Source of the DNA: Balneolaceae bacterium
GTDB taxonomy: Bacteria > Bacteroidota > Rhodothermia > Balneolales > Balneolaceae
NCBI GenBank assembly: GCA_034669965.1
Contig: JAXMOK010000001.1
Coordinates: 814,194-846,193 of the forward strand
Direction: 5' to 3'
Length of the DNA stretch: 32,000 bases
Below, piece by piece: positions 10,853 through 21,169 of this stretch. A model generated the notes under the pieces. That model worked only from the letters and a program-made list of their open reading frames with translations, did not search any database and was not told the DNA's origin. Position 1 is the stretch's first letter. Each line of letters starts with the position of its first letter. The translations under genes were made by a program, and so were the position numbers.

Positions 10853-10882
10853 AAAAAAGCCTTACTTTCCAGTAAGGCTTTT
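10853..10882 (-). terminator. Rho-independent terminator closing the 10.9-19.3 kb operon
   Basis: Perfect 10-bp stem AAGCCTTACT (10857-10866) / AGTAAGGCTT (10871-10880) with a TTCC loop. On the minus strand it is followed by TTTTTTAT. Confidence 0.75.
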
Positions 10883-10958: not shown

Positions 10959-11117
10959 TTATGGTTGTTCTTTTAGATCTTCGATACAATCAACCGAATT
11001 CAGTAAATCTGAAACCATCATTCTTATTCCGTTATAGATATAAAACTTTGCTTCAGGATATTCCTCTAATAACATCTCTAACTGCATCATAATATTTCGA
11101 ATGTCTCTTTCCATCAT
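10959..11117 (-). CDS. Small ORF (52 aa), hypothetical acidic helical protein
   Basis: Below the ORF-track size cutoff. Minus-strand ATGATG at 11117, TAA at 10961-10959. Product: MMERDIRNIMMQLEMLLEEYPEAKFYIYNGIRMMVSDLLNSVDCIEDLKEQP. A GAGAGGG SD-like element lies 4-5 nt upstream of the ATG. It sits between the receptor gene and the terminator. Confidence 0.4.
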   Translation of the reverse strand: MMERDIRNIMMQLEMLLEEYPEAKFYIYNGIRMMVSDLLNSVDCIEDLKEQP

Positions 11118-11204: not shown

Positions 11205-14132
11205 TTATATTTTTACTCGAAGAGACCCTCCGAATCTTCGTGCACCGGGGCCGGTTAAGTACTCAAAACCTAGATTGTTAACACCTCCTCCATTCGAGTT
11301 TACGTTAGGATCGAAGCCCGTTCCCTCCGGAATATTGTACATTTTCAGAAAGGCATTTTCTACCGAAACGGAAATAATTACCTCTTTTAATCCCGTTTTT
11401 TGTATCCAGTTTTGTGGAATTTGATACGAAAACCCAATGTGTGCAATACGTAAATGAGTCATGTCGTATACTCTAAGCTCATCAGGACCGAACCCTAGAT
11501 TATTGAAGTAATATTGCTGTTTACTAATTTCGATTTCGTTAGGTGAGCCATCAAATTGAACCCCTTCAATTATAAAAGATTCATCCCTGTCTAATGTTGA
11601 AGTAACCAAACCTCTTCCCACCAACGACCCAATCCACGAGCTGTACATGTCGCCACCTTGTTGATAATCAACTTGTAATGTGATAGACAGATTCTTGTAA
11701 TCGAATTGTTGAAGTACAGCAAGGTTCCAATCAGGAACTGGGTTTCCGATAATTGAATTTTGATCGGTGATGTAATTTCCGTTACCGTCGATTATAGGCG
11801 TTCCAATGGGTACGCCTCGCATATTCGGATCTGCTTGTTGCATTTCACGAGTTACTCGCAAAATTGTACTTCCATACATGCTTAAATATGGTTCATTTAT
11901 TTGCGCCAAATTTCCTCTGAATCCTTGACTATGCCCTAACTGAATGGCATTAAATGTACCTGTGTATTCTTTTACATCGGCTTTAGAAGTGCTGAAATTA
12001 GAAGTAATTTGCCAATTTACTTTGCCTTGTACAGGAATAAGTTGGGCTTGAGCATCCAAACCTTCTACTTCCATTTCAAGGAGATTATCTAATATTGAAC
12101 TGTAACCTAAATTCGGATTTACAGCAATCCTCGAAATTAAATCGGTATGAACGCGATTGTAATATTTAAACGATAGCAAAATACGGTTATTCAAAAATCC
12201 TATGGTTGAAGCCCATTGTTTTTCTATGGATCGCTCGGGCTTTAAGTTTTCATTAAAACCAACACTAGCTCGATCTTGAACAAGTATTTCAAGTTCAGTT
12301 AAGATTGATCTCCCTGAAGTCAGATAGGAGTATGAAATATCGAAGTAACTGAATAACTCAGTTCTTGTTGAAAACAATTGTGTTGGGGTAAGTCCGATTG
12401 TTACTGATGGATAGGTAGCTTCCAAATCCTGTTGTTGTAACGATTGATTCCACTGTTTTCGTAACCCAAATGAGCCATAAACCCATTGGTTGTATTTGAT
12501 ATCTAGCGAAGCAAATGCTCCGAGTGAACGCCGTTCAAAATCTCTTTCCATCAATTCGCTAGTAAATGAGTTTGTTGAACTTTGTACTCGAAAATTATCA
12601 TGATCAAACACTCCAAACTCTCTTATATCTGTACTTTCGAGACCTTTTTCATTTATATTTTCACTAATATAATGGGCTCCCAAATTAATCTCCGTCATCA
12701 AGCTTTCAGAGAAATCAGGTCGGATTTTTGCAATAGCAAAATTATCAAGAAGCGTTCTATCAACTTCTATTGTTTGAAATAACCCAAGTGTATAAGGGAA
12801 ATTAAATGTACCATTCGGATTAAGTTTGTACTCTTGATTTTCGTCGTAGCTATCAAAAGTATATTTGTAGTAAAATTCAAAAATATCAGATGGCTTAAAT
12901 GAGAGTGCTGTTTTACCAAGTATTCTATTTGTCTCGTTCGTTGTTGATGCATTATTTACGAACCATTTAGGGTGTATGATATCTTGGCGGTAATACAGGA
13001 ATCCATCGTTATCAGGATTAACATTTGGCATATCTAAATCGATAGACCGCGGCGTAAAAAATAGATAAGTGAAAGCGCCGGTTGTAGCCCCCCCTTCTAC
13101 AACGCCACTCCCGCTCCCCGCCGATTGTGGTGGCATTTTAACATCGGTGAATAAAAACTGAACGCTTGAGTTACCACTTACTTGATTTGTAATTTGATAA
13201 TTCGCCGATGTGCCAAAACTGTTTTTAAGTATAGAGTTGTTTGGAGTGAATCCATCTTCTTGATTTCCAGAGTAATTAAAACTCCACGAAGTTTTTCCCT
13301 TCTTGTAATTAACATCAATGAAAGAACGTGTTGCTATACCATTTCTGAAATATGATTCGATAGGCGTATTTTTGGCTTCATATCGATAAACCTGGGTTGA
13401 ATAATCTGGTGCATCATTTGAAGTAAAATTGTAATACCCATACGGATGATCTACCAGAACTGTACCGTCGTCATCAAGACCATTGTAATTCGATGGAAAG
13501 TTTGCTGGGTCTTGACTGTCAAATGAAGCGCCCCACGTACTATAAAAAGCCCCGTATTGTTCATTAAACCCAATACCATATTTATTTTGATAATCCGGTC
13601 TACTCGATATTGAAGTTGAATAAACACTCTGATCTATGTTGATCTCCAATCCTTCGTTAATCTGCTGTTTTGCTCCTCTGATGGTGTTGATTTCAATCAC
13701 ACCATTCGTTGCTTCTTCGCCATAAATAATTGTTCCTTGTAAAGAGCTAAGTACACGTACATCAATAATTTCAGATGGATGTATATCAAATGATCGGTTT
13801 GGGGTTACTAGAGTTCCTCCTCCGTTAAATGCTGTACTGTTAAAGTTACTAGCACCATCAAAACGAATTCCATCAATAATTATAAGAGGGTCGCTAGAAG
13901 CATTTAAACTCGAATAACTTCGAATAACTGCATTTGTACCTGTACCGGAAACTCCTCCAGTTGCAGTAATTTTTAATCCGGGAGCAAGACCTGACAAAAC
14001 CCTTAGGAAATCAGCTTGGGATACAGATTTAGAAGTGATGATATTTGTTGAATCAGGAAATGATTGAGATTGTACCTGATTAATTCCGAAAAAGAGAAGT
14101 AAAAGCGAAAGTAGATATTTTTTCATAGGCAT
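11205..14132 (-). CDS. TonB-dependent receptor homologue, SusC/RagA-like outer-membrane beta-barrel (plug plus barrel)
   Basis: 975 aa. Signal peptide MPMKKYLLSLLLLFFGINQVQSQ. Plug-domain signature LSGLAPGLKITATGGVSGTGTNAVIRSYSSLNASSDPLIIIDGIRFDG ... IIDVRVLSSLQGTIIYGEEATNGVIEINTIRG, compared with SusC as I remember it. A long beta-rich C-terminal region follows. There is no CarboxypepD_reg N-domain and no susD-like gene downstream. Confidence 0.8.
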   Translation of the reverse strand: MPMKKYLLSLLLLFFGINQVQSQSFPDSTNIITSKSVSQADFLRVLSGLAPGLKITATGGVSGTGTNAVIRSYSSLNASSDPLIIIDGIRFDGASNFNSTAFNGGGTLVTPNRSFDIHPSEIIDVRVLSSLQGTIIYGEEATNGVIEINTIRGAKQQINEGLEINIDQSVYSTSISSRPDYQNKYGIGFNEQYGAFYSTWGASFDSQDPANFPSNYNGLDDDGTVLVDHPYGYYNFTSNDAPDYSTQVYRYEAKNTPIESYFRNGIATRSFIDVNYKKGKTSWSFNYSGNQEDGFTPNNSILKNSFGTSANYQITNQVSGNSSVQFLFTDVKMPPQSAGSGSGVVEGGATTGAFTYLFFTPRSIDLDMPNVNPDNDGFLYYRQDIIHPKWFVNNASTTNETNRILGKTALSFKPSDIFEFYYKYTFDSYDENQEYKLNPNGTFNFPYTLGLFQTIEVDRTLLDNFAIAKIRPDFSESLMTEINLGAHYISENINEKGLESTDIREFGVFDHDNFRVQSSTNSFTSELMERDFERRSLGAFASLDIKYNQWVYGSFGLRKQWNQSLQQQDLEATYPSVTIGLTPTQLFSTRTELFSYFDISYSYLTSGRSILTELEILVQDRASVGFNENLKPERSIEKQWASTIGFLNNRILLSFKYYNRVHTDLISRIAVNPNLGYSSILDNLLEMEVEGLDAQAQLIPVQGKVNWQITSNFSTSKADVKEYTGTFNAIQLGHSQGFRGNLAQINEPYLSMYGSTILRVTREMQQADPNMRGVPIGTPIIDGNGNYITDQNSIIGNPVPDWNLAVLQQFDYKNLSITLQVDYQQGGDMYSSWIGSLVGRGLVTSTLDRDESFIIEGVQFDGSPNEIEISKQQYYFNNLGFGPDELRVYDMTHLRIAHIGFSYQIPQNWIQKTGLKEVIISVSVENAFLKMYNIPEGTGFDPNVNSNGGGVNNLGFEYLTGPGARRFGGSLRVKI

Positions 14133-14177
14133 TTTAGCTTCAATAACTGAAGCGACGACAGTTTAGTGCCTTGAAAA

Positions 14178-14870
14178 TTAGTTAGAAGCTACTTGATAAT
14201 AAATACGTACAACAATTCTTCTATTCAATGCTCTGTTTTCGATAATATTTCCACCCTCTTCATCAACATGAGGAACTACAGGTTTTGTATCTGCATATCC
14301 TGACGCTTTCAACCTCTCTGCCTCAATGCCTTCTTCGATAAAGTATTTTACTACGCCAGATGCTCTGGCAACAGATAATTCCCAGTTAGAAGGATAGATG
14401 GGGGTGTTGATGGGTACGTTATCTGTGTGACCTTCAACATCAACATTGAACTTATAAAAATCCAGTTCGTTCATTGCCTGTGTAACTTTATCTATAATTA
14501 CCTGACCAGAAGGTAATAATTCAGCCTCGCCCGATTGGTAAAATGAACTACTTGAAAAGTATAGTTTGATCCCGTCACGATCGAGGGTAATATCAACCAA
14601 GCCTTGAGTTTTTTCAACAGCTAACAACGAATCCAAATCTGCTTTAACTTCTGCTAGTGGCGTACGAACATCTTCTTGTTTAGAAATCTCAGAACGTAAA
14701 CCTTGCTTCATCTGCTCCCAGAGATTTAAATCAACGTAAGACACAGCAATTAACATTGCAAAGAACGCGAGTAACAGGGTTATCATATCACTATAAGTGA
14801 GTAACCATTCTTGGTCCTCAACATGCTCTTCCTTTATATCAGAATTTCCGCCGTATTCGCGTTTTATCAC
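14178..14870 (-). CDS. MotB/PomB-like stator subunit with C-terminal OmpA-like peptidoglycan-binding domain
   Basis: 230 aa. GTG start at 14870, preceded by AGGAGG 7 nt upstream. Single TM WLLTYSDMITLLLAFFAMLIA carrying the conserved proton-accepting Asp (residue 28; compare E. coli MotB D32). OmpA_C motifs GHTDNVP...NWELSVARASGVVKY...GYADTKPV...NRALNRRIVVRI. Confidence 0.85.
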   Translation of the reverse strand: MIKREYGGNSDIKEEHVEDQEWLLTYSDMITLLLAFFAMLIAVSYVDLNLWEQMKQGLRSEISKQEDVRTPLAEVKADLDSLLAVEKTQGLVDITLDRDGIKLYFSSSSFYQSGEAELLPSGQVIIDKVTQAMNELDFYKFNVDVEGHTDNVPINTPIYPSNWELSVARASGVVKYFIEEGIEAERLKASGYADTKPVVPHVDEEGGNIIENRALNRRIVVRIYYQVASN

Positions 14871-14883
14871 CGGAAGCCTCCTG

Positions 14884-15702
14884 TTAGTCTGCTACTTGCT
14901 TATTCTTGAAATCTCTTCTTAAATAAGTACTTAATTTATCCTGAATGTAGAAGGATGATTTTTTATCGTTGATCAACAAAATACCTTCGAGAATAAAATA
15001 CTCACGAAACCGGTTAAGTTGAGCTACATTTTTAATCTTCTCGGCAACCGGATAGAAAATAAACCGCGCCAATGATATCCCGTACAGTGTGGTTATCAAT
15101 GCGGCTGCTAATCCCGGCCCCATTCCAGAAGGATTTTCGAGTTGACCAAGCATAACAATCAAACCAAATAAAGTACCAAACATACCAAACGAAGGTGCCG
15201 CAGCTCCCATAGCACGGAGAACATCAACTACTACCAGTTGTCGAAAATATTGCTCTTCAATATGATTAGATCCAAACGACTTGATATCTTCGCTCGAATA
15301 ATTCGTACTCAATAAAGAAAACAAATAACCGGATACCTCACCTATATGCTCGTCTTCGAGTTTGGAAAGCGCAGATACGCGATTATTTTTAATCTGATCG
15401 TTCCAAACAAGCATTTCACCTAAATCAGATTCTAAGGTTTTGGATGATGTTTTAGCTTGGCTAAATAAGTAAAGCAATCCTGCAAACGCTTGCCCAACAT
15501 ATTTTGGTTGATAGGTTATAAACACTGCATTTAGAATACCTCCCATCACTATAAATAAACTTGGAAGGTTTAAAAAGGTGTATTGCGATAGAAAAGGGAT
15601 GGAATTTAAAACGTTTGTAACACTGGTGATTTCGGTAACCCCGAAAACCAGAATTCCTACACTAAAAAGTACCCCTAATATATTTGTTAACGAAAGTCTC
15701 AT
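14884..15702 (-). CDS. MotA/PomA-like stator subunit (MotA/TolQ/ExbB proton-channel family)
   Basis: 272 aa with flagellar-MotA topology: 2 TM, a ~100-aa cytoplasmic loop, 2 TM and a cytoplasmic tail. AAAPSFGMFGTLFGL and ALITTLYGISLARFIFYPVAEKI carry prolines at residues 170 and 218 (compare E. coli MotA P173 and P222). An ATGA overlap links it to the upstream gene. Confidence 0.85.
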   Translation of the reverse strand: MRLSLTNILGVLFSVGILVFGVTEITSVTNVLNSIPFLSQYTFLNLPSLFIVMGGILNAVFITYQPKYVGQAFAGLLYLFSQAKTSSKTLESDLGEMLVWNDQIKNNRVSALSKLEDEHIGEVSGYLFSLLSTNYSSEDIKSFGSNHIEEQYFRQLVVVDVLRAMGAAAPSFGMFGTLFGLIVMLGQLENPSGMGPGLAAALITTLYGISLARFIFYPVAEKIKNVAQLNRFREYFILEGILLINDKKSSFYIQDKLSTYLRRDFKNKQVAD

Positions 15703-16325
15703 TGTCCACCGTCCTCTCGTAGTTCATTAATTAATGTTTCTAATTCCGGAATACTTGGTACAGGAATATTCGGATCCATCTGTACGGCTTTATTCCAATT
15801 TGCCCGAGCTGCAGTAATATTCTCCATCATAAAAAAGATAGTCCCTTTAAGTGCATACGCGTCGGCTGTTTCTTGAATCCTCATCGTTTTTTCAACTTCG
15901 GCTAATGCGTCGTTGTATTCTCCCAAATAAAATAAATCCTGTGCTTTTCTATAACTCGCTAACAATGTTTGTATGTCTCGAGCACGGTTTTTAACTAACG
16001 ATGAATCAACTACAATGATTGAATCGGATTCCGTTGGAGTCATACCTTTCAGATCTAAATAGAATTCATCTTGGCTAGGGTCAAGGGTTACCTGAATAGC
16101 AGAACTTGCATTTCGATAGGTTACGATAACTGGGTTTGGTCGCCTAGTTTCATTTTCCGATTCAGCAGAATTCGAATTACTACTCAATTCCGGAATCGCT
16201 TGAATACCGTTCTGCGGCTCTTCTTGAGCCGCTTCAGATGACTTACAACTATAGCCTGCCATAGCAATCAAAGTCACTAATAGTATTGATTTAAAATCTA
16301 ACAACCGCGTGCACACCATATCCAA
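15699..16325 (-). CDS. TPR-repeat lipoprotein (periplasmic)
   Basis: 208 aa. The track start at 16325 is TTG, and the first ATG is at 16319. N-terminus (M)VCTRLLDFKSILLVTLIAMAGYSC looks like a lipoprotein signal. A low-complexity linker follows, then a TPR-like region (DLFYLGEYNDALAEVEKTMRIQETADAYALKGTIFF...ANWNKAVQMDPN). It overlaps the upstream gene by about 29-35 nt. Confidence 0.65.
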   Translation of the reverse strand: MDMVCTRLLDFKSILLVTLIAMAGYSCKSSEAAQEEPQNGIQAIPELSSNSNSAESENETRRPNPVIVTYRNASSAIQVTLDPSQDEFYLDLKGMTPTESDSIIVVDSSLVKNRARDIQTLLASYRKAQDLFYLGEYNDALAEVEKTMRIQETADAYALKGTIFFMMENITAARANWNKAVQMDPNIPVPSIPELETLINELREDGGQ

Positions 16326-17376
16326 CCTTATTGTATGTTATTCTATCGTTGTTGCTAAGCCGAAGCTCCTCGCCGGATAATATGAGACTTGTATAAAACG
16401 AGAGACCTAAGTTTTTACTCATATTAAACATGATTCCGGGACGGGCCGTAAACATTTCACCTTTTACATTACTAAGGGGAAACTGAACACTGGTATTCAA
16501 GTACACTACCATTCTGTAATTATCAATATCTTCATTTATTTCAGGTGAAAGCGCTTGAAAGTACGTCAAGCCAAAATTTAGTAAGAACAAATTAAATTCA
16601 TCGTCACGGCGCGCGCGTAATATATTTAACCCACCTGTAAAACCGATATATGCACTATTATCTCGATTTAATGGTTGCCGATATGTAAAATTGGCTGAAT
16701 AAGTTAATATTGGATTACTAAATGATGTATCCTGATTTGCAAATGATGTGTCGGCTCTGAATTTTGAATCCGTTTGCATAGACCCTGCTCCTACTTTTAA
16801 TATAAGAGTTTGGCCTTTATCTAGTATTTCCACCACTTCAAAGGGATTTGCAATAAAGCTTTTTGTCCACACAATTTCTCGTGAACGAGGATTCATTATT
16901 CTAATCGACAATATCAATCCGTCAGGGTTACGACGCTGTAAACCAACTTCAATTAGGCCGTTAACACCATACTTTTCAGTAATTTCAGTCAGAAATTCTG
17001 GCGAAACATCAGCAAGTGATCTTCCTTGAATATTTAATATCTGAAGAGTGCTATCGTTCCCCATAATTTTCATCTTATCATTGGGTTCAAGCTCTGGGGG
17101 CGAAAGTACGGTTATACCCGCATACGTTCGCAGTGATGACTCAATCTCGCTTCTGATAAATTCAACCTCTTGAACCGTAAAACGCATTGCGTTATAGTTC
17201 ATTTTATAAACAGCAACGCGCCGAATATTCGCTGGTATGTCGCTCAATTGATCTACCATTTGATTAGTGATCAATCCCATCTGATATGGCACACCTTCTT
17301 CATGGGTTTGTGCCTGTAAATTTTCTACTAAACTAGTAGTTAGTATCAGAAAACTAAACAGTACTACTCTTTTCAT
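16291..17376 (-). CDS. Two-domain outer-membrane protein: periplasmic N-domain (CsgG/FlgO/LpoB-like pattern) plus C-terminal beta-barrel
   Basis: 361 aa. Signal peptide MKRVVLFSFLILTTSLVENLQAQ. The N-half (IRRVAVYKMNYN...GVNGLIEVGLQRR..LILSIRIMNPRSREIVWTKSF) has the pattern seen in CsgG/FlgO-type periplasmic domains. The C-half has alternating hydrophobic strands and ends in the OMP-type terminal HAVVRF. The start lies 2 nt after the upstream stop, with an AGAGGG SD-like element. Confidence 0.6.
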   Translation of the reverse strand: MKRVVLFSFLILTTSLVENLQAQTHEEGVPYQMGLITNQMVDQLSDIPANIRRVAVYKMNYNAMRFTVQEVEFIRSEIESSLRTYAGITVLSPPELEPNDKMKIMGNDSTLQILNIQGRSLADVSPEFLTEITEKYGVNGLIEVGLQRRNPDGLILSIRIMNPRSREIVWTKSFIANPFEVVEILDKGQTLILKVGAGSMQTDSKFRADTSFANQDTSFSNPILTYSANFTYRQPLNRDNSAYIGFTGGLNILRARRDDEFNLFLLNFGLTYFQALSPEINEDIDNYRMVVYLNTSVQFPLSNVKGEMFTARPGIMFNMSKNLGLSFYTSLILSGEELRLSNNDRITYNKVGYGVHAVVRF

Positions 17377-17378
17377 TG

Positions 17379-19325
17379 CTAGCCCTCTGTCTTCATTTTT
17401 CGACGTACAGCATACAATACAGTCTTCTGAGCATCTTCGATTGCTGCTTTTGGTACTTCAGCAGGATTATCAACCTCCGACAATATCAGCTGTTGCTCAC
17501 GTTTCGGCCGAACTTTAAGAATTTTTTCCCTCACAGTAGCGGGTGCCGTTTTAAGTGCGAGAATTAACGTTTCGGTAGGAATATCCTCTAGGGCACTTTG
17601 TACAAAATCGTCTTTAACTTTCGGTAGATCATCAAAACCGATAAAGAATTTCTTAATACGCTTAGCCAAGTTTAAATCTTGTTCGGCAATCGAACGCACA
17701 TAATCGTCTTGCTCAGACAATGGCATAGTTTCTAGAGTAGTAAGAATCGAATCGATACCATCGGCAGCTACATATTTCATATCCGATACAGATAGCGCTT
17801 TATTAGAGAAATGAGCAGCAACTTTTTTATACACCGAAATTGGAATATTATTGATCTTACCCATTTTTAGCAGAATAGAAATCCTTTTTTGTTCATCCAT
17901 TTTCTGAAGGATAACACCGGCTCTTTCCCCAGCAATTTGAGCTAACAATATTGCTACTAATTCATCCGACTCTTCTTTAATGAGGTGCAATAATTGCACA
18001 TCGGTAAGTTGATACACAAAATCGAATAGACTTGAGCCGGAGTCAGCCGTACCATTCTTAGAATTAACCTGCTGAAGACTTCTTCTCAAAGCTTTAACTT
18101 CGTCTATCCTTTCATCGATTGGAATAGATTCTAGGTTTTGAATGGAATATTTAACCGATTCATAGTGCTCCACTTTCAAATGTGGTTCCAGTACATTGAG
18201 CAATTTCTCATCAACACTATTTAATGCTCGAGCCGATCTTATTATTCCCTGCTCATCATCACTAGCAATCCATTGCCCAACTAAATCTGCAACTTTATCT
18301 GGATGACTAATGCATGAATTTGTCACAAACGTTTTATCCTCTTCATGCTGAGCTAATGTTTTAGCATCTGGACCTTTAGGTTCTTCTTTTGTTTCAGTAG
18401 CAGGCATTACAGAAGCGACCTCATATCCAGGCATTGGTTGCATTCTATAATCTTCATCCCTTTTCGAAGGGCGACGTAATAATGCAATTAACAATGCAAT
18501 CAAAAATAAAACACCTAATATTGCTATCACATAAATCAAATGCTGTGGGTTGTTCCAATCAATGCCAAGAAACATGTTCTTTTCTAGCTCAGCTGTTTGT
18601 TGTTGATTTAAAGCCGGATCTAGCATTTCTATCTGTGGCTCTTCCTCATCTGAGTCATCCTTAGTATTTGCTTGGCGGTTTTGAGCATCCTGTTGAATAG
18701 CACGGGCACTTCTTGGAAATACTTTTTTCTCAACCGTTACTATATCGCCACGAAATGGATCCGCATTTGCAATTAAAGACGTGGCCTCTTCAACAAATTC
18801 AACATCTTCATCACTATACGATGTATCAACAAGGACTTTAATGTTTAAGCGGGTCAGCCTGAAACGAGCATCAAACCCGGAGGCTTTTAAACTATCGGTT
18901 GTTCCATTTGTAGACCTTTGAAGATTAGGTGGCACAAACGGAAGACCGGGTAGATTTTCGATACGCACAGGCTCTTCACCTTCGATCACTTCGTATCCTC
19001 TTGGAACCAGCACACGTTCAAGCGAAGCTTTCGCATCTACTATAAACGTACCACGCCGATAATAATCGGAAAGAGCGTTATTTAAAATTACCTCGTAATA
19101 CTGCTCATACTTAGCAGCTTCCTCCTGAACATCGGTAGATACTACCTGTCCGGGTAATGTTTGGGCAATAATACCAGTGCTTAAACAGGTAAATACCAGT
19201 ACTAATAGCCATTTTTGTTTTTTCCCAACCATTTCAAACCCCTGTAGAGTAAGTTGATGCCTGTAGTTTTGAATTTTTTTACGAAAAGAGACTAAGTATG
19301 CAGAAAATTTTAGAGTTTTCCACAT
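17379..19325 (-). CDS. Bitopic inner-membrane protein with a periplasmic FliF/RBM-like region fused to a cytoplasmic full-length FliG-like domain
   Basis: 648 aa. TM/signal anchor at aa ~38-55 (KKQKWLLVLVFTCLSTGIIAQ). Periplasmic region aa ~56-261. TM2 at aa 262-284 (HLIYVIAILGVLFLIALLIALLRR). Cytoplasmic aa ~340-648 align by eye with FliG N/M/C domains: FDFVYQLTDVQLLHLIKEESDELVAILLAQIAGERAGVILQKMDEQKRISILLKM, FFIGFDDLPKVKDDFVQSALEDIPTETLILALKTAPATVREKILKVRPKREQQLILSEVDNPAEVPKAAIEDAQKTVLYAVRRK. An alternative start at M32 (19232) has a better GGGG RBS. Confidence 0.75.
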   Translation of the reverse strand: MWKTLKFSAYLVSFRKKIQNYRHQLTLQGFEMVGKKQKWLLVLVFTCLSTGIIAQTLPGQVVSTDVQEEAAKYEQYYEVILNNALSDYYRRGTFIVDAKASLERVLVPRGYEVIEGEEPVRIENLPGLPFVPPNLQRSTNGTTDSLKASGFDARFRLTRLNIKVLVDTSYSDEDVEFVEEATSLIANADPFRGDIVTVEKKVFPRSARAIQQDAQNRQANTKDDSDEEEPQIEMLDPALNQQQTAELEKNMFLGIDWNNPQHLIYVIAILGVLFLIALLIALLRRPSKRDEDYRMQPMPGYEVASVMPATETKEEPKGPDAKTLAQHEEDKTFVTNSCISHPDKVADLVGQWIASDDEQGIIRSARALNSVDEKLLNVLEPHLKVEHYESVKYSIQNLESIPIDERIDEVKALRRSLQQVNSKNGTADSGSSLFDFVYQLTDVQLLHLIKEESDELVAILLAQIAGERAGVILQKMDEQKRISILLKMGKINNIPISVYKKVAAHFSNKALSVSDMKYVAADGIDSILTTLETMPLSEQDDYVRSIAEQDLNLAKRIKKFFIGFDDLPKVKDDFVQSALEDIPTETLILALKTAPATVREKILKVRPKREQQLILSEVDNPAEVPKAAIEDAQKTVLYAVRRKMKTEG

Positions 19326-19479: not shown

Positions 19480-20745
19480 CTAGTTCTGTCTAGGCATCGA
19501 TTTTAGTACTAAATTTGCCAACTTTTCTTCCAGATACGCCTTTTCACATCGGGTTTTGCTATAATCTATCGCTACCACATAATATGATTTAGCTTTTTCA
19601 AATTCTCCAATTTTTGCATGAACTCTACCTAATGCAGCAAATAACAAAGAAAACTGAACTGAGGACTTCGACTTCAATTTCTTTAAAAGAGTCAGGCTTT
19701 TTTCTACTTCTCCGTATTCACATAGGGCGATTGCTAAACTAGTTTCAACTTGAATCGAATCATCGAAAGAAAGTAACCGTTGGTACAAATCTATGATTCT
19801 CTCCCAATCGGTATCGCTATAGGAATTGGCAGTACTGTGAATTGCAGCAATACCAGACTCAATGTGAAATCTACTTAACCTTTCTGTTATTCTTGATAAT
19901 TTTTGGTGTACTAGTCCTCTGTGAATGAGCTCTCTGTGCCAAAGTTTACGGTTTTGGTCTTCTATACTAATAGGTATCCCTTTGTCATCTACTCTTGCTT
20001 CAAAGCGAGCGAATTGAAATAACATTAAAGCAAATAATGCGTGTGTAGATGCATTGCAAAGAGTTTTATCATCAATAACCCACTCCGTTAATCGCATTGC
20101 TTCGAAACAAATATCGGCATTTACTTCGCTCTCGCTGTTTGAGGTTGAATATCCTTCGTTAAACATCAGATACAGAACCATTTCTACAATGGGTAAACGC
20201 TGTTGTAAATCCTTATCTGTGAGTTCTAGAAAATAGTTCTGATGTTCTTTTAACGTGATTTTTGCTCTATAAATCGCTTTCCTAACCGCTGCAGGCTCCA
20301 TAAAAAAGGCGTTCGCAATTTCTTTATCTCCAAAACCACATACCATTTTTAAAGTGAGCATAATTTGAGATTTAACAGCCAATAATGGGCTACAACAACC
20401 AAATAGTGCTTTTAGCTGAATGGCTTTTTCTTGATGATAAACCGCCCCTATTAAATCAGATTCTTCTTCAATAATTGGTACTAACTTTTTATTTAGTTCT
20501 TTGTGTCGGCCTTTTTTGTTTAACTCATTTATAGTTTTGTTCGTAGCCACTTTCATCAACCAAGCTTCAGGATTCTCGGGAATCCCCTTCATCCCCCAAA
20601 GCCGAAGTGCGGTATAAAATGTGTCTTGAATTGAATCCTCTATCAATTCTGCATTATTGAACCCAAACTTACCAATTAATATAGAAGCCATCTTTCCAGA
20701 CTGTTGCCTGAAAAGATGGTCGAATAGATGGTTTGCTACCTTCAT
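19480..20745 (-). CDS. ECF sigma factor with C-terminal TPR-like extension (ECF42-type)
   Basis: Sigma-70 region 2 (IEDSIQDTFYTALRLWGMKGIPENPEAWLMKVATNKTINELNKKGRH), a region 4-like segment (GFGDKEIANAFFMEPAAVRKAIYRAKITLK) and a ~200-aa helical/TPR-like tail. I chose the ATG at 20745, which forms an ATGA overlap with the stop of the upstream YciI-like gene. The track start at 20808 would overlap that gene by 67 nt. Confidence 0.75.
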   Translation of the reverse strand: MKVANHLFDHLFRQQSGKMASILIGKFGFNNAELIEDSIQDTFYTALRLWGMKGIPENPEAWLMKVATNKTINELNKKGRHKELNKKLVPIIEEESDLIGAVYHQEKAIQLKALFGCCSPLLAVKSQIMLTLKMVCGFGDKEIANAFFMEPAAVRKAIYRAKITLKEHQNYFLELTDKDLQQRLPIVEMVLYLMFNEGYSTSNSESEVNADICFEAMRLTEWVIDDKTLCNASTHALFALMLFQFARFEARVDDKGIPISIEDQNRKLWHRELIHRGLVHQKLSRITERLSRFHIESGIAAIHSTANSYSDTDWERIIDLYQRLLSFDDSIQVETSLAIALCEYGEVEKSLTLLKKLKSKSSVQFSLLFAALGRVHAKIGEFEKAKSYYVVAIDYSKTRCEKAYLEEKLANLVLKSMPRQN

Positions 20746-21086
20746 TTCATTTCGATATGCATAACCGGCCGAATTTCTACCGATCCCCCTAAATTTAATA
20801 TTGGGCATCCTTTTGAGAGTTCGGTTGCTTCTGCAAGGCTGTTCGCTTTAATGATATAAAAACCACTTACCAGTTCTTTTGCCTCGATGTATGGGCCATC
20901 AGTAACCATTCTATCTTTCCCGTGAACAGAAAACGCATCACCTTCTAATGGTTCGCCAGAATCGTAGTGGTCGCCAAGCTCCGCTATCCATTGTCCGTGT
21001 GCATTTATCTCGTTTTGGTATTCCTCAGGCGTCATATTTGCGTAACTATCACCTGATTCAAATAAAATGAGCATATATTTATTCAT
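20742..21086 (-). CDS. YciI/DGPF (YCII-related) domain protein
   Basis: MNKYMLILFESGD...VTDGPYIEAKELVSGFYIIKANSLAEATELSKGCPIL is typical of YCII-related domain proteins. Start chosen at 21086 because AAGGAG lies 7 nt upstream. The track start at 21116 would add 10 aa. Confidence 0.75.
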   Translation of the reverse strand: MNKYMLILFESGDSYANMTPEEYQNEINAHGQWIAELGDHYDSGEPLEGDAFSVHGKDRMVTDGPYIEAKELVSGFYIIKANSLAEATELSKGCPILNLGGSVEIRPVMHIEMK

Positions 21087-21169
21087 CTCGTCTCCTTTTT
21101 TAATATTGATGTACACCCGTAATACAATTGAATGAAAGGAAACGGGACATCACTTAAAAATGCAATGTC

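Follow-up and report, generated by a model that had tools for sequence, protein, structure and literature searches.

Outer-membrane barrels of the SusC/RagA type are thought to work solely as TonB-driven importers lidded by SusD. In the SusC protein BT1763, removal of the TonB box or of the N-terminal extension (NTE) abolishes function, and loop L7, known as the "hinge1" loop, contacts SusD (PMC7782687). A TonB-dependent-type barrel that serves protein secretion is Oar of Myxococcus xanthus (review PMC11658791), which is encoded beside the MotA/ExbB-family motor genes exbB/exbD and is not used for nutrient import (PMC11658791). Here we analyze a gene for a SusC-like orphan barrel (protein P0001; 11205..14132, minus strand, 975 amino acids) that lies immediately behind the genes of a MotAB-type stator in a 32,000-nucleotide stretch of DNA of a Balneolaceae bacterium (GenBank assembly GCA_034669965.1, contig JAXMOK010000001.1, positions 814,194 to 846,193), hereafter the window. 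In what follows, G000 is the genome of the window and C denotes its contigs, whereas the other G and P numbers are labels of the compared genomes and proteins.

P0001 shares the fold of the SusC/RagA transporters (BT2264, BT1763, RagA and the family model TIGR04056), is nested within the SusC proteins of the Balneolaceae and, like them, is constrained in its plug and extracellular loops; unlike them, it has neither NTE nor TonB box nor an adjacent SusD gene, shows an 18-residue deletion in the presumed loop L7 and scores below the curated family cut-off. Oar is comparable in being a receptor-type barrel next to motor genes, but it has a TonB box, requires TonB1 and is served by ExbBD instead of a MotAB/FliG-like rotor-stator set (PMC11658791). 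The genes upstream of P0001 are reminiscent of the flagellar MotAB stator and FliF/FliG rotor in that their products include MotA, MotB and a protein carrying the N, M and C domains of FliG; the flagellar motor, unlike the module of the window, is encoded in a separate, complete-looking cluster of its own in the same genome (C1:406-466 kb). No flagellar motor is known to include a SusC-type barrel. With slightly better than even confidence, we regard P0001 as an orphan SusC derivative that was inserted once behind motB and has a TonB-independent role at the cell surface, and not as a core part or energized gate of the Mot machine.

A SusC-fold barrel without its coupling parts

The open reading frame (ORF) of P0001 is intact, with its stop codon at 11205-11207. 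The ORF opens with ATG-CCT-ATG (14126-14132, minus strand); the first ATG is missing in three orthologues, and the second one, at residue 3, may be the real start. A signal peptide, read from the sequence, is predicted for residues 1-22 (14067..14132, minus strand), with cleavage after VQS making Q23 the first mature residue, and its hydrophobic core and the AQ/SQ junction are kept in 8/8 orthologues. An AlphaFold2 model built from 32 homologues (mean predicted local distance difference test score, pLDDT, 82.5; predicted TM score 0.84) has residues 1-28 disordered, followed by a plug domain (residues ~28-160; 13653..14051, minus strand), delineated from the secondary structure of the model and from alignment to the plug of BT2264, and then by a beta-barrel (residues 161-975; 11208..13652, minus strand) of about 22 long strands, as counted with DSSP, with long extracellular loops. 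The pLDDT of the plug is 77-90 over residues 41-160. The top Foldseek match is BT2264, the SusC chain of the BT2261-2264 complex (5fq6), with TM scores of 0.81-0.84; the next ranks are taken by other SusC/RagA chains, including BT1763 and RagA, whereas classical siderophore receptors rank far lower. A phmmer search of Protein Data Bank sequences also retrieved BT2264 (E 1e-32). Thus, the model and Foldseek agree on a plug within a large SusC-type barrel of 22 strands, the architecture for which the earlier note had proposed an AlphaFold check, and P0001 is a plugged, SusC-derived outer-membrane barrel.

At the level of family models the protein is less conspicuous. The NCBIfam model TIGR04056 (SusC/RagA) gives it 245.6 bits, short of the curated cut-off (368.25); the match spans positions 87-964 of the 981-position profile and leaves the NTE portion unmatched. 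No Pfam family, Plug included, matches the barrel protein, and a Plug search of the whole genome also misses the gene; its plug is too divergent for detection with this model.

The unmatched profile segment corresponds to a true loss. In a MAFFT alignment, LDDVVVTAFGIQRERRALGYG is found in the canonical relatives, and the P0001 clade has a gap over this entire block. The first plug strand of these relatives is preceded by an NTE of 80 residues, the LDDVVVTAFG box and a linker, all of which are gaps in P0001 and its seven orthologues, with 82 gapped positions in P0001 facing the NTE. Pfam did not match an NTE in the barrel protein, and just 10 open codons precede the start. The site of the NTE, TonB box and linker is taken by a short mature N-terminal segment, residues 23-40, QSFPDSTNIITSKSVSQA (14013..14066, minus strand), which leaves room for about 18 mature residues up to the D41-F-L-R...PG motif conserved in the plug and for about 5 up to the first predicted strand. 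The stretch STNIITSKSV of P0001 faces the first strand of the canonical SusC plug and not the box. Within residues 23-40, only a D-S/T pair is conserved; the pairwise identity within the clade is 0.41, the pLDDT is 33-53, and the tails of two orthologues contain prolines at differing positions. The variability of the tail and the shifting prolines count against a hidden TonB box.

The absence of the box also stands out against the other receptors of the same cell. A first survey with a custom hidden Markov model of the plug motif was too narrow, and a Pfam Plug search was used instead, from which the 75-140 residues ahead of the plug were extracted for all 27 Plug-bearing receptors of G000. 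An acidic-x-[IV]VV box ([DE]x[IV]VV) lies just before the plug in 27/27 of these proteins, nearly all of which also have an NTE, and no such motif is present in the barrel protein of the window, which is therefore a genuine exception in its own cell.

The SusD side of the system is missing as well. Compared with canonical relatives, the Mot-linked clade shows a deletion of 18 residues at residue 615, within what we number as loop L7 by counting the strands of the model. There is no adjacent SusD gene, the downstream genes being a 52-aa ORF and a gene for a cytoplasmic-looking protein of 177 aa; all SusD-like genes of G000 lie elsewhere (C1:243-248 kb, C9, C10 and C17). P0001 is thus a barrel without every known coupling device, namely the N-terminal domain, the TonB box and the SusD lid. 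Because BT1763 needs its TonB box and NTE and uses L7 as a SusD hinge, a protein like P0001, in which all of these are lost, cannot act as a canonical SusCD importer. The earlier note had called the gene a SusC-like receptor without NTE, obvious TonB box or SusD partner, and the alignment, the structural comparison and the gene neighbors agree with it on each of these points; its view that the barrel is not energized through a canonical TonB box is thus supported.

The TonB and MotA/ExbB-type components of TonB energization are otherwise available. G000 encodes ten proteins with a TonB_C domain and, beyond the flagellar copy and the two copies linked to FliG fusions, two MotA/ExbB-family genes, at C16:59976, which adjoins a TonB_C gene, and at C1:148260.

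Several SusC-like and SusD-like genes elsewhere in G000 depart from the usual arrangement. At C9:2281-5587, two tandem genes encode SusD-like_2 lipoproteins (546 and 547 aa) with no adjoining SusC gene; they share 48-54% identity with their SusD-like counterparts in the canonical C1 locus described below. This orphan pair was considered as a partner of P0001 in trans and rejected: it is absent from the barrel-bearing genomes G098-G100, and a 61%-identical homologue is present in the barrel-less G096. A second SusC-like protein without NTE or TonB box (901 aa; C17:47650-50199) is only a distant relative of P0001; the start of its gene overlaps the stop of a gene for a 1083-aa FG-GAP/ASPIC-UnbV protein, and its mature N-terminus, too, contains a D-S-L triplet. 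At C10:20274-23293, a canonical SusC gene followed by its SusD partner is seemingly split in two frames with in-frame stops (TGA, TAA); the split could stem from a frameshift in a pseudogene or from an error in the assembly.

Relatives and the order of losses

The closest full-featured relative of P0001 is encoded in the same genome, in a canonical locus at C1:242-252 kb (SusC gene at C1:248033), and is ~40% identical to it (40-42%) over residues 13-974. Its barrel is of the same size, but the protein has 1099 aa, with Pfam matches to CarbopepD_reg_2, Plug and the barrel and with the box DDVVVTAFG, and downstream of its gene come genes for a SusD-like protein and another lipoprotein, a trio that recurs in other Balneolaceae. 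In a maximum likelihood tree, the NTE-less proteins (8 Mot-linked and 5 orphans) are monophyletic, with a support of 100 in the Shimodaira-Hasegawa-like approximate likelihood ratio test (SH-aLRT), and this clade is nested among the canonical 1100-aa SusC genes of the Balneolaceae (SH-aLRT 100/99), which are followed by SusD-like genes. The sister group of the Mot-linked proteins comprises orphans of similar length that also lack the NTE and SusD, among them P0012, P0013 and P0016, encoded beside accD/DUF885 genes, and P0009, encoded beside an AraC gene. Unlike P0001, most of these proteins retain a linker and a degenerate box-like stretch (ADSVNTSFG or ADTIQSPTG), and none of them is linked to motAB; in P0009 (genome G035), the box-like stretch has also been lost, either independently or by shared loss. 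Given that orphans without NTE and SusD are unlinked to motAB, the loss of both predates the adjacency to the Mot genes. With 0.54 substitutions per site, the stem branch of the Mot-linked clade is long.

According to the earlier note, a clear TonB box, together with orthologues in ordinary susC/susD loci unlinked to motAB, would indicate fortuitous adjacency. No TonB box was found, whereas the nearest canonical relatives do reside in susC/susD loci and the NTE-less ones outside the Mot-linked clade are unlinked to motAB.

A late addition to an older FliG/MotAB module

Among the 216 genomes of the family that were searched, full-length orthologues of P0001 (49-91% identity, 974-978 aa) are confined to its own genus, where they are found in G000 and seven other genomes. 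In 8/8 of these the gene belongs to one syntenic block that runs from a histidine kinase through YCII, an extracytoplasmic function (ECF) sigma factor, a FliG fusion, the protein p361, a TPR protein, MotA, MotB, the barrel, the 52-aa and the 177-aa proteins to an SSF symporter. Since the block is syntenic as a whole, the retained position of the barrel gene carries little weight.

More informative is the comparison with 15 further loci of the same module type (type 1), two of them in congeneric genomes, G096 and G093, and 13 in genomes of eight other genera. The gene order FliG fusion-p361-TPR-MotA-MotB is kept in 15/15 of these loci (one is interrupted by a contig end), whereas 0/15, in nine genera, contain a receptor or SusC-like gene, and the genes that follow motB vary by genus. 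Likewise, a receptor gene is found near the module in 0/6 loci of two more distant module types, and distant modules of two other families have none, either. The barrel thus does not co-occur with the module everywhere the module occurs but is limited to eight genomes of one genus, and its association with the module arose once, late, beside an older module.

In the congeners G096 and G093, the 52-aa gene comes directly after motB, and in G096 it is followed by the same cluster with an SSF symporter and a GH109 gene as in the window. Neither blastn nor tblastn detected a trace of the barrel in the 365-nt, AT-rich spacer between motB and the 52-aa gene of G096. Taken alone, the DNA of this spacer is compatible with either insertion of the barrel gene or its clean deletion; insertion is favored because the other genera do not have the barrel gene. 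A YCII/ECF-sigma (DUF6596) gene pair (19480-21116, minus strand) and the 177-aa gene are, like the barrel gene, absent from the otherwise syntenic region of G096, so that the two groups of the genus differ at three places within this one block.

The module itself consists of five genes on the minus strand. The first one (17379..19325) encodes a membrane-anchored FliG-like protein, apparently a FliF/FliG fusion, of 648 aa, with Pfam FliG_N/M/C matches over residues 444-645 and orthologues in nine genera. It is followed by the gene for p361, the outer-membrane protein of the module (16291..17376), which comprises a TolB-N/LpoB-like periplasmic domain and an 8-strand barrel. This assignment comes from an AlphaFold2 model (pLDDT 75.8) with eight C-terminal strands and Foldseek matches to LpoB/TolB and to OmpA/OmpX/NspA/OmpW, and the protein ends in an aromatic residue (...AVVRF); no Pfam, NCBIfam or PADLOC family matches p361. 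Then come a 208-aa TPR lipoprotein (15699..16325; Pfam TPR, lipobox-like GYSC), a 272-aa MotA-like stator subunit (14884..15702; Pfam MotA_ExbB, best NCBIfam matches MotP/PomA/MotA) and, as the last member, a 230-aa MotB-like stator subunit (14178..14870; Pfam MotB_plug and OmpA) that is 65-99% identical across the module-bearing genomes examined. Through p361, as modeled, the module is self-sufficient at the outer membrane. With the separate flagellar cluster present, the module is an additional system in a flagellated organism.

Between motB and the barrel gene there are only 45 nt (14133..14177, minus strand). This spacer contains a 6-bp hairpin without a T-run (14137-14153) and, ~35 nt upstream of the barrel start, a AGGCACTAA motif (14163-14171), and a terminator scan of it gave no hit. 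The GGCACTAA element, which occurs once in the window, is kept in 7/8 orthologous spacers even though the remaining spacer diverges, and might serve as a promoter or as a site of processing or regulation. The only terminator-like site between motB and the 177-aa gene is a 12-bp hairpin with a T run (10855..10882, minus strand) after the 52-aa ORF, which would close the transcription unit. The earlier note had likewise placed the barrel gene directly after MotAB and followed it with the 52-aa ORF and a terminator alone. Given the 45-nt gap, the shared strand and the lack of an intervening terminator, the barrel gene is probably co-transcribed with the MotAB operon, as far as can be judged from the arrangement of the genes, although an internal promoter may exist.

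Selection and conserved surfaces

Relative to its closest orthologue (91% identical), the barrel gene has a ratio of nonsynonymous to synonymous substitution rates (dN/dS) of 0.054 at a dS of 0.86, similar to that of the module genes, and the protein retains the residues that are invariant family-wide. Hence the gene is functional and under strong purifying selection. When residues were sorted by topology in the AlphaFold2 model, conservation was highest in the plug (0.71), followed by the extracellular loops (0.67), the strands (0.60), the N-terminal tail (0.41) and, last, the periplasmic turns (0.38), an order shared with canonical SusC. Such a pattern is what would be expected of a protein that still handles something at the cell surface, and not of one with its key interface turned towards a periplasmic motor.

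Evolutionary scenario and alternative explanations

We propose that an orphan branch of the Balneolaceae SusC family first shed the NTE and the SusD partner, and that the sub-branch represented in the window then also lost the TonB box, the linker and 18 residues of L7, the presumed hinge loop for SusD. Later, in the common ancestor of eight congeneric species, the gene landed between motB and a small unrelated gene, and the barrel thereby became the 3'-terminal addition to a far older operon, that of the five FliG-fusion/MotAB genes. There, it would act at the surface as a TonB-independent ligand-binding, slow-channel, receptor or platform-type barrel. The evolutionary part of this scenario, a single insertion of an orphan SusC derivative behind motB, is well supported, whereas the TonB-independent surface role is inferred; the link to the motor is probably not the mechanism of the barrel. 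Several observations weigh against the proposal. In 8/8 species, the barrel gene follows motB on the same strand at a distance of 45-50 nt, without an intervening terminator, even though the barrels diverge down to 49% identity; co-expression with the motor is accordingly likely, and the arrangement could reflect a functional tie. The long stem branch would agree with a functional shift at around the time when the gene was relocated. Furthermore, a literature search found no TonB-independent activity for any SusC homologue and nothing specific on natural SusC proteins without a TonB box.

These same observations can be read to mean that the barrel is a lineage-specific accessory outer-membrane part of the Mot machine, with its plug or its position moved through p361 or the TPR lipoprotein instead of TonB. 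The close spacing behind motB, with no terminator until past the 52-aa ORF, the retention of the arrangement in eight species, the complete loss of a box that the 27 other receptors have, the long stem branch at the time of relocation and the conserved element in the spacer would all suit such a part. Nevertheless, we consider this explanation unlikely: the association arose only once, while 15 other type-1 modules and six more distant ones do without a receptor gene; two congeners run the module without the barrel; the module has an outer-membrane barrel of its own in p361; the NTE and SusD were lost before the linkage, and the unlinked P0009 is without a TonB box, too; the periplasmic face is the least conserved surface; and the position is retained within a neighborhood that is syntenic throughout. 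This explanation is the proposal of the earlier note, in which the barrel is gated or used as an anchor by the Mot-type machine, and the comparisons do not support it. A specific variant, in which a second, non-flagellar FliG/MotAB machine took over a SusC barrel already devoid of TonB coupling as its stator-driven outer-membrane effector, seems to us a shade less likely still; if true, a barrel driven by a Mot stator would be a new way to energize an outer-membrane barrel. The neat position in the operon of a single genome resembled motor-barrel coupling, and wider sampling turned it into a single late insertion beside an older, self-sufficient module, which should serve as a warning for similar cases.

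Other explanations leave the motor aside. The barrel might be an unenergized slow-diffusion entry for the sugar-scavenging cluster (SSF symporter, GH109, nucleotidyltransferase and kinase) that begins ~1 kb downstream, with the Mot adjacency being accidental. The conserved plug and extracellular loops suit ligand handling, and the gene of the NTE-less P0012, in another lineage, lies within ~4 kb of an orthologue of the SSF symporter (56% identity) and a GH109 gene; however, the barrel is set apart from the cluster by a terminator and by the unrelated 52-aa and 177-aa genes, G096 has the SSF/GH109 cluster in the same place without the barrel, other NTE-less relatives lack such neighbors, and the GH109 genes of the two contexts are only 35% identical, which makes this connection rather improbable. 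Slightly more doubtful again is the suggestion that P0001 is still TonB-dependent and that the D-S/T-x-x-hydrophobic stretch at the mature N-terminus is a cryptic short TonB box for one of the TonB paralogues. The D-S/T pair is found 4-5 residues past the cleavage site in 8/8 orthologues as well as in the unlinked P0009, residues 28-40 are modeled with low confidence, as is often the case with flexible TonB boxes, the plug and extracellular loops are constrained as in working transporters, and the genome supplies ten TonB_C-domain genes and two further MotA/ExbB-family genes. The stretch, however, aligns opposite the first plug strand and not the box, has at most 5 free residues ahead of the plug, belongs to the second least conserved region of the protein, with prolines within it in two orthologues, whereas the canonical DDVVVTAFG is nearly invariant, and does not show the acidic-x-[IV]VV pattern of the 27 other receptors. 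Finally, the stepwise loss of NTE, SusD, TonB box and loop segment, the score under the curated family cut-off and the absence of a Pfam match might be taken as signs of a decaying relic SusC with no remaining function; a frame that is intact in eight species, the low dN/dS, which contradicts decay, the confident fold model, the conserved plug and the retained invariant residues render this highly improbable.

In P0001, the plug and extracellular loops that remain under strong purifying selection despite the lost parts point to an unrecognized TonB-independent role for SusC-type barrels. The genomes with and without the barrel make up a small, well-defined set in which such a role can be tested.

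Neighboring genes and other elements

The 52-aa ORF downstream of the barrel (10959..11117, minus strand) is a genuine gene, conserved at 77-96% identity in 10/10 other genomes of the genus. Its dN/dS is 0.03-0.08, and it is more conserved than the barrel gene. We considered whether it is a member of the module, which would place the barrel inside the operon, and rejected this possibility because the 52-aa gene is likewise present in genera and genomes in which a type-1 FliG-fusion gene was not found; it is tied neither to the FliG-fusion module nor to the barrel. A homology between the 177-aa neighbor and a 180-aa gene located beside the accD-type orphans was also considered and rejected, as the two proteins are not homologous. 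Searches of the window for an ECF42-type promoter motif and for Rfam families produced no match. The PADLOC models of anti-phage defense gave only a generic ZorB/MotB similarity, for MotB, and the literature offered nothing specific on non-flagellar FliG/MotAB systems with receptors.

The flagellar cluster of G000 includes genes for FlhA, FliF, a 352-aa FliG and a MotA-family protein, as well as five tandem flagellin genes of ~318-320 aa each. In addition, G000 contains a second module paralogous to that of the window (C2:484000-494300), with no receptor gene nearby. It encodes a 281-aa protein, a 998-aa protein with CarboxypepD_reg/TPR matches, a 618-aa FliG fusion, a TPR protein, MotA and a 610-aa MotB-SPOR fusion. 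Its conservation extends to further genera of the family and to another family of the same order.

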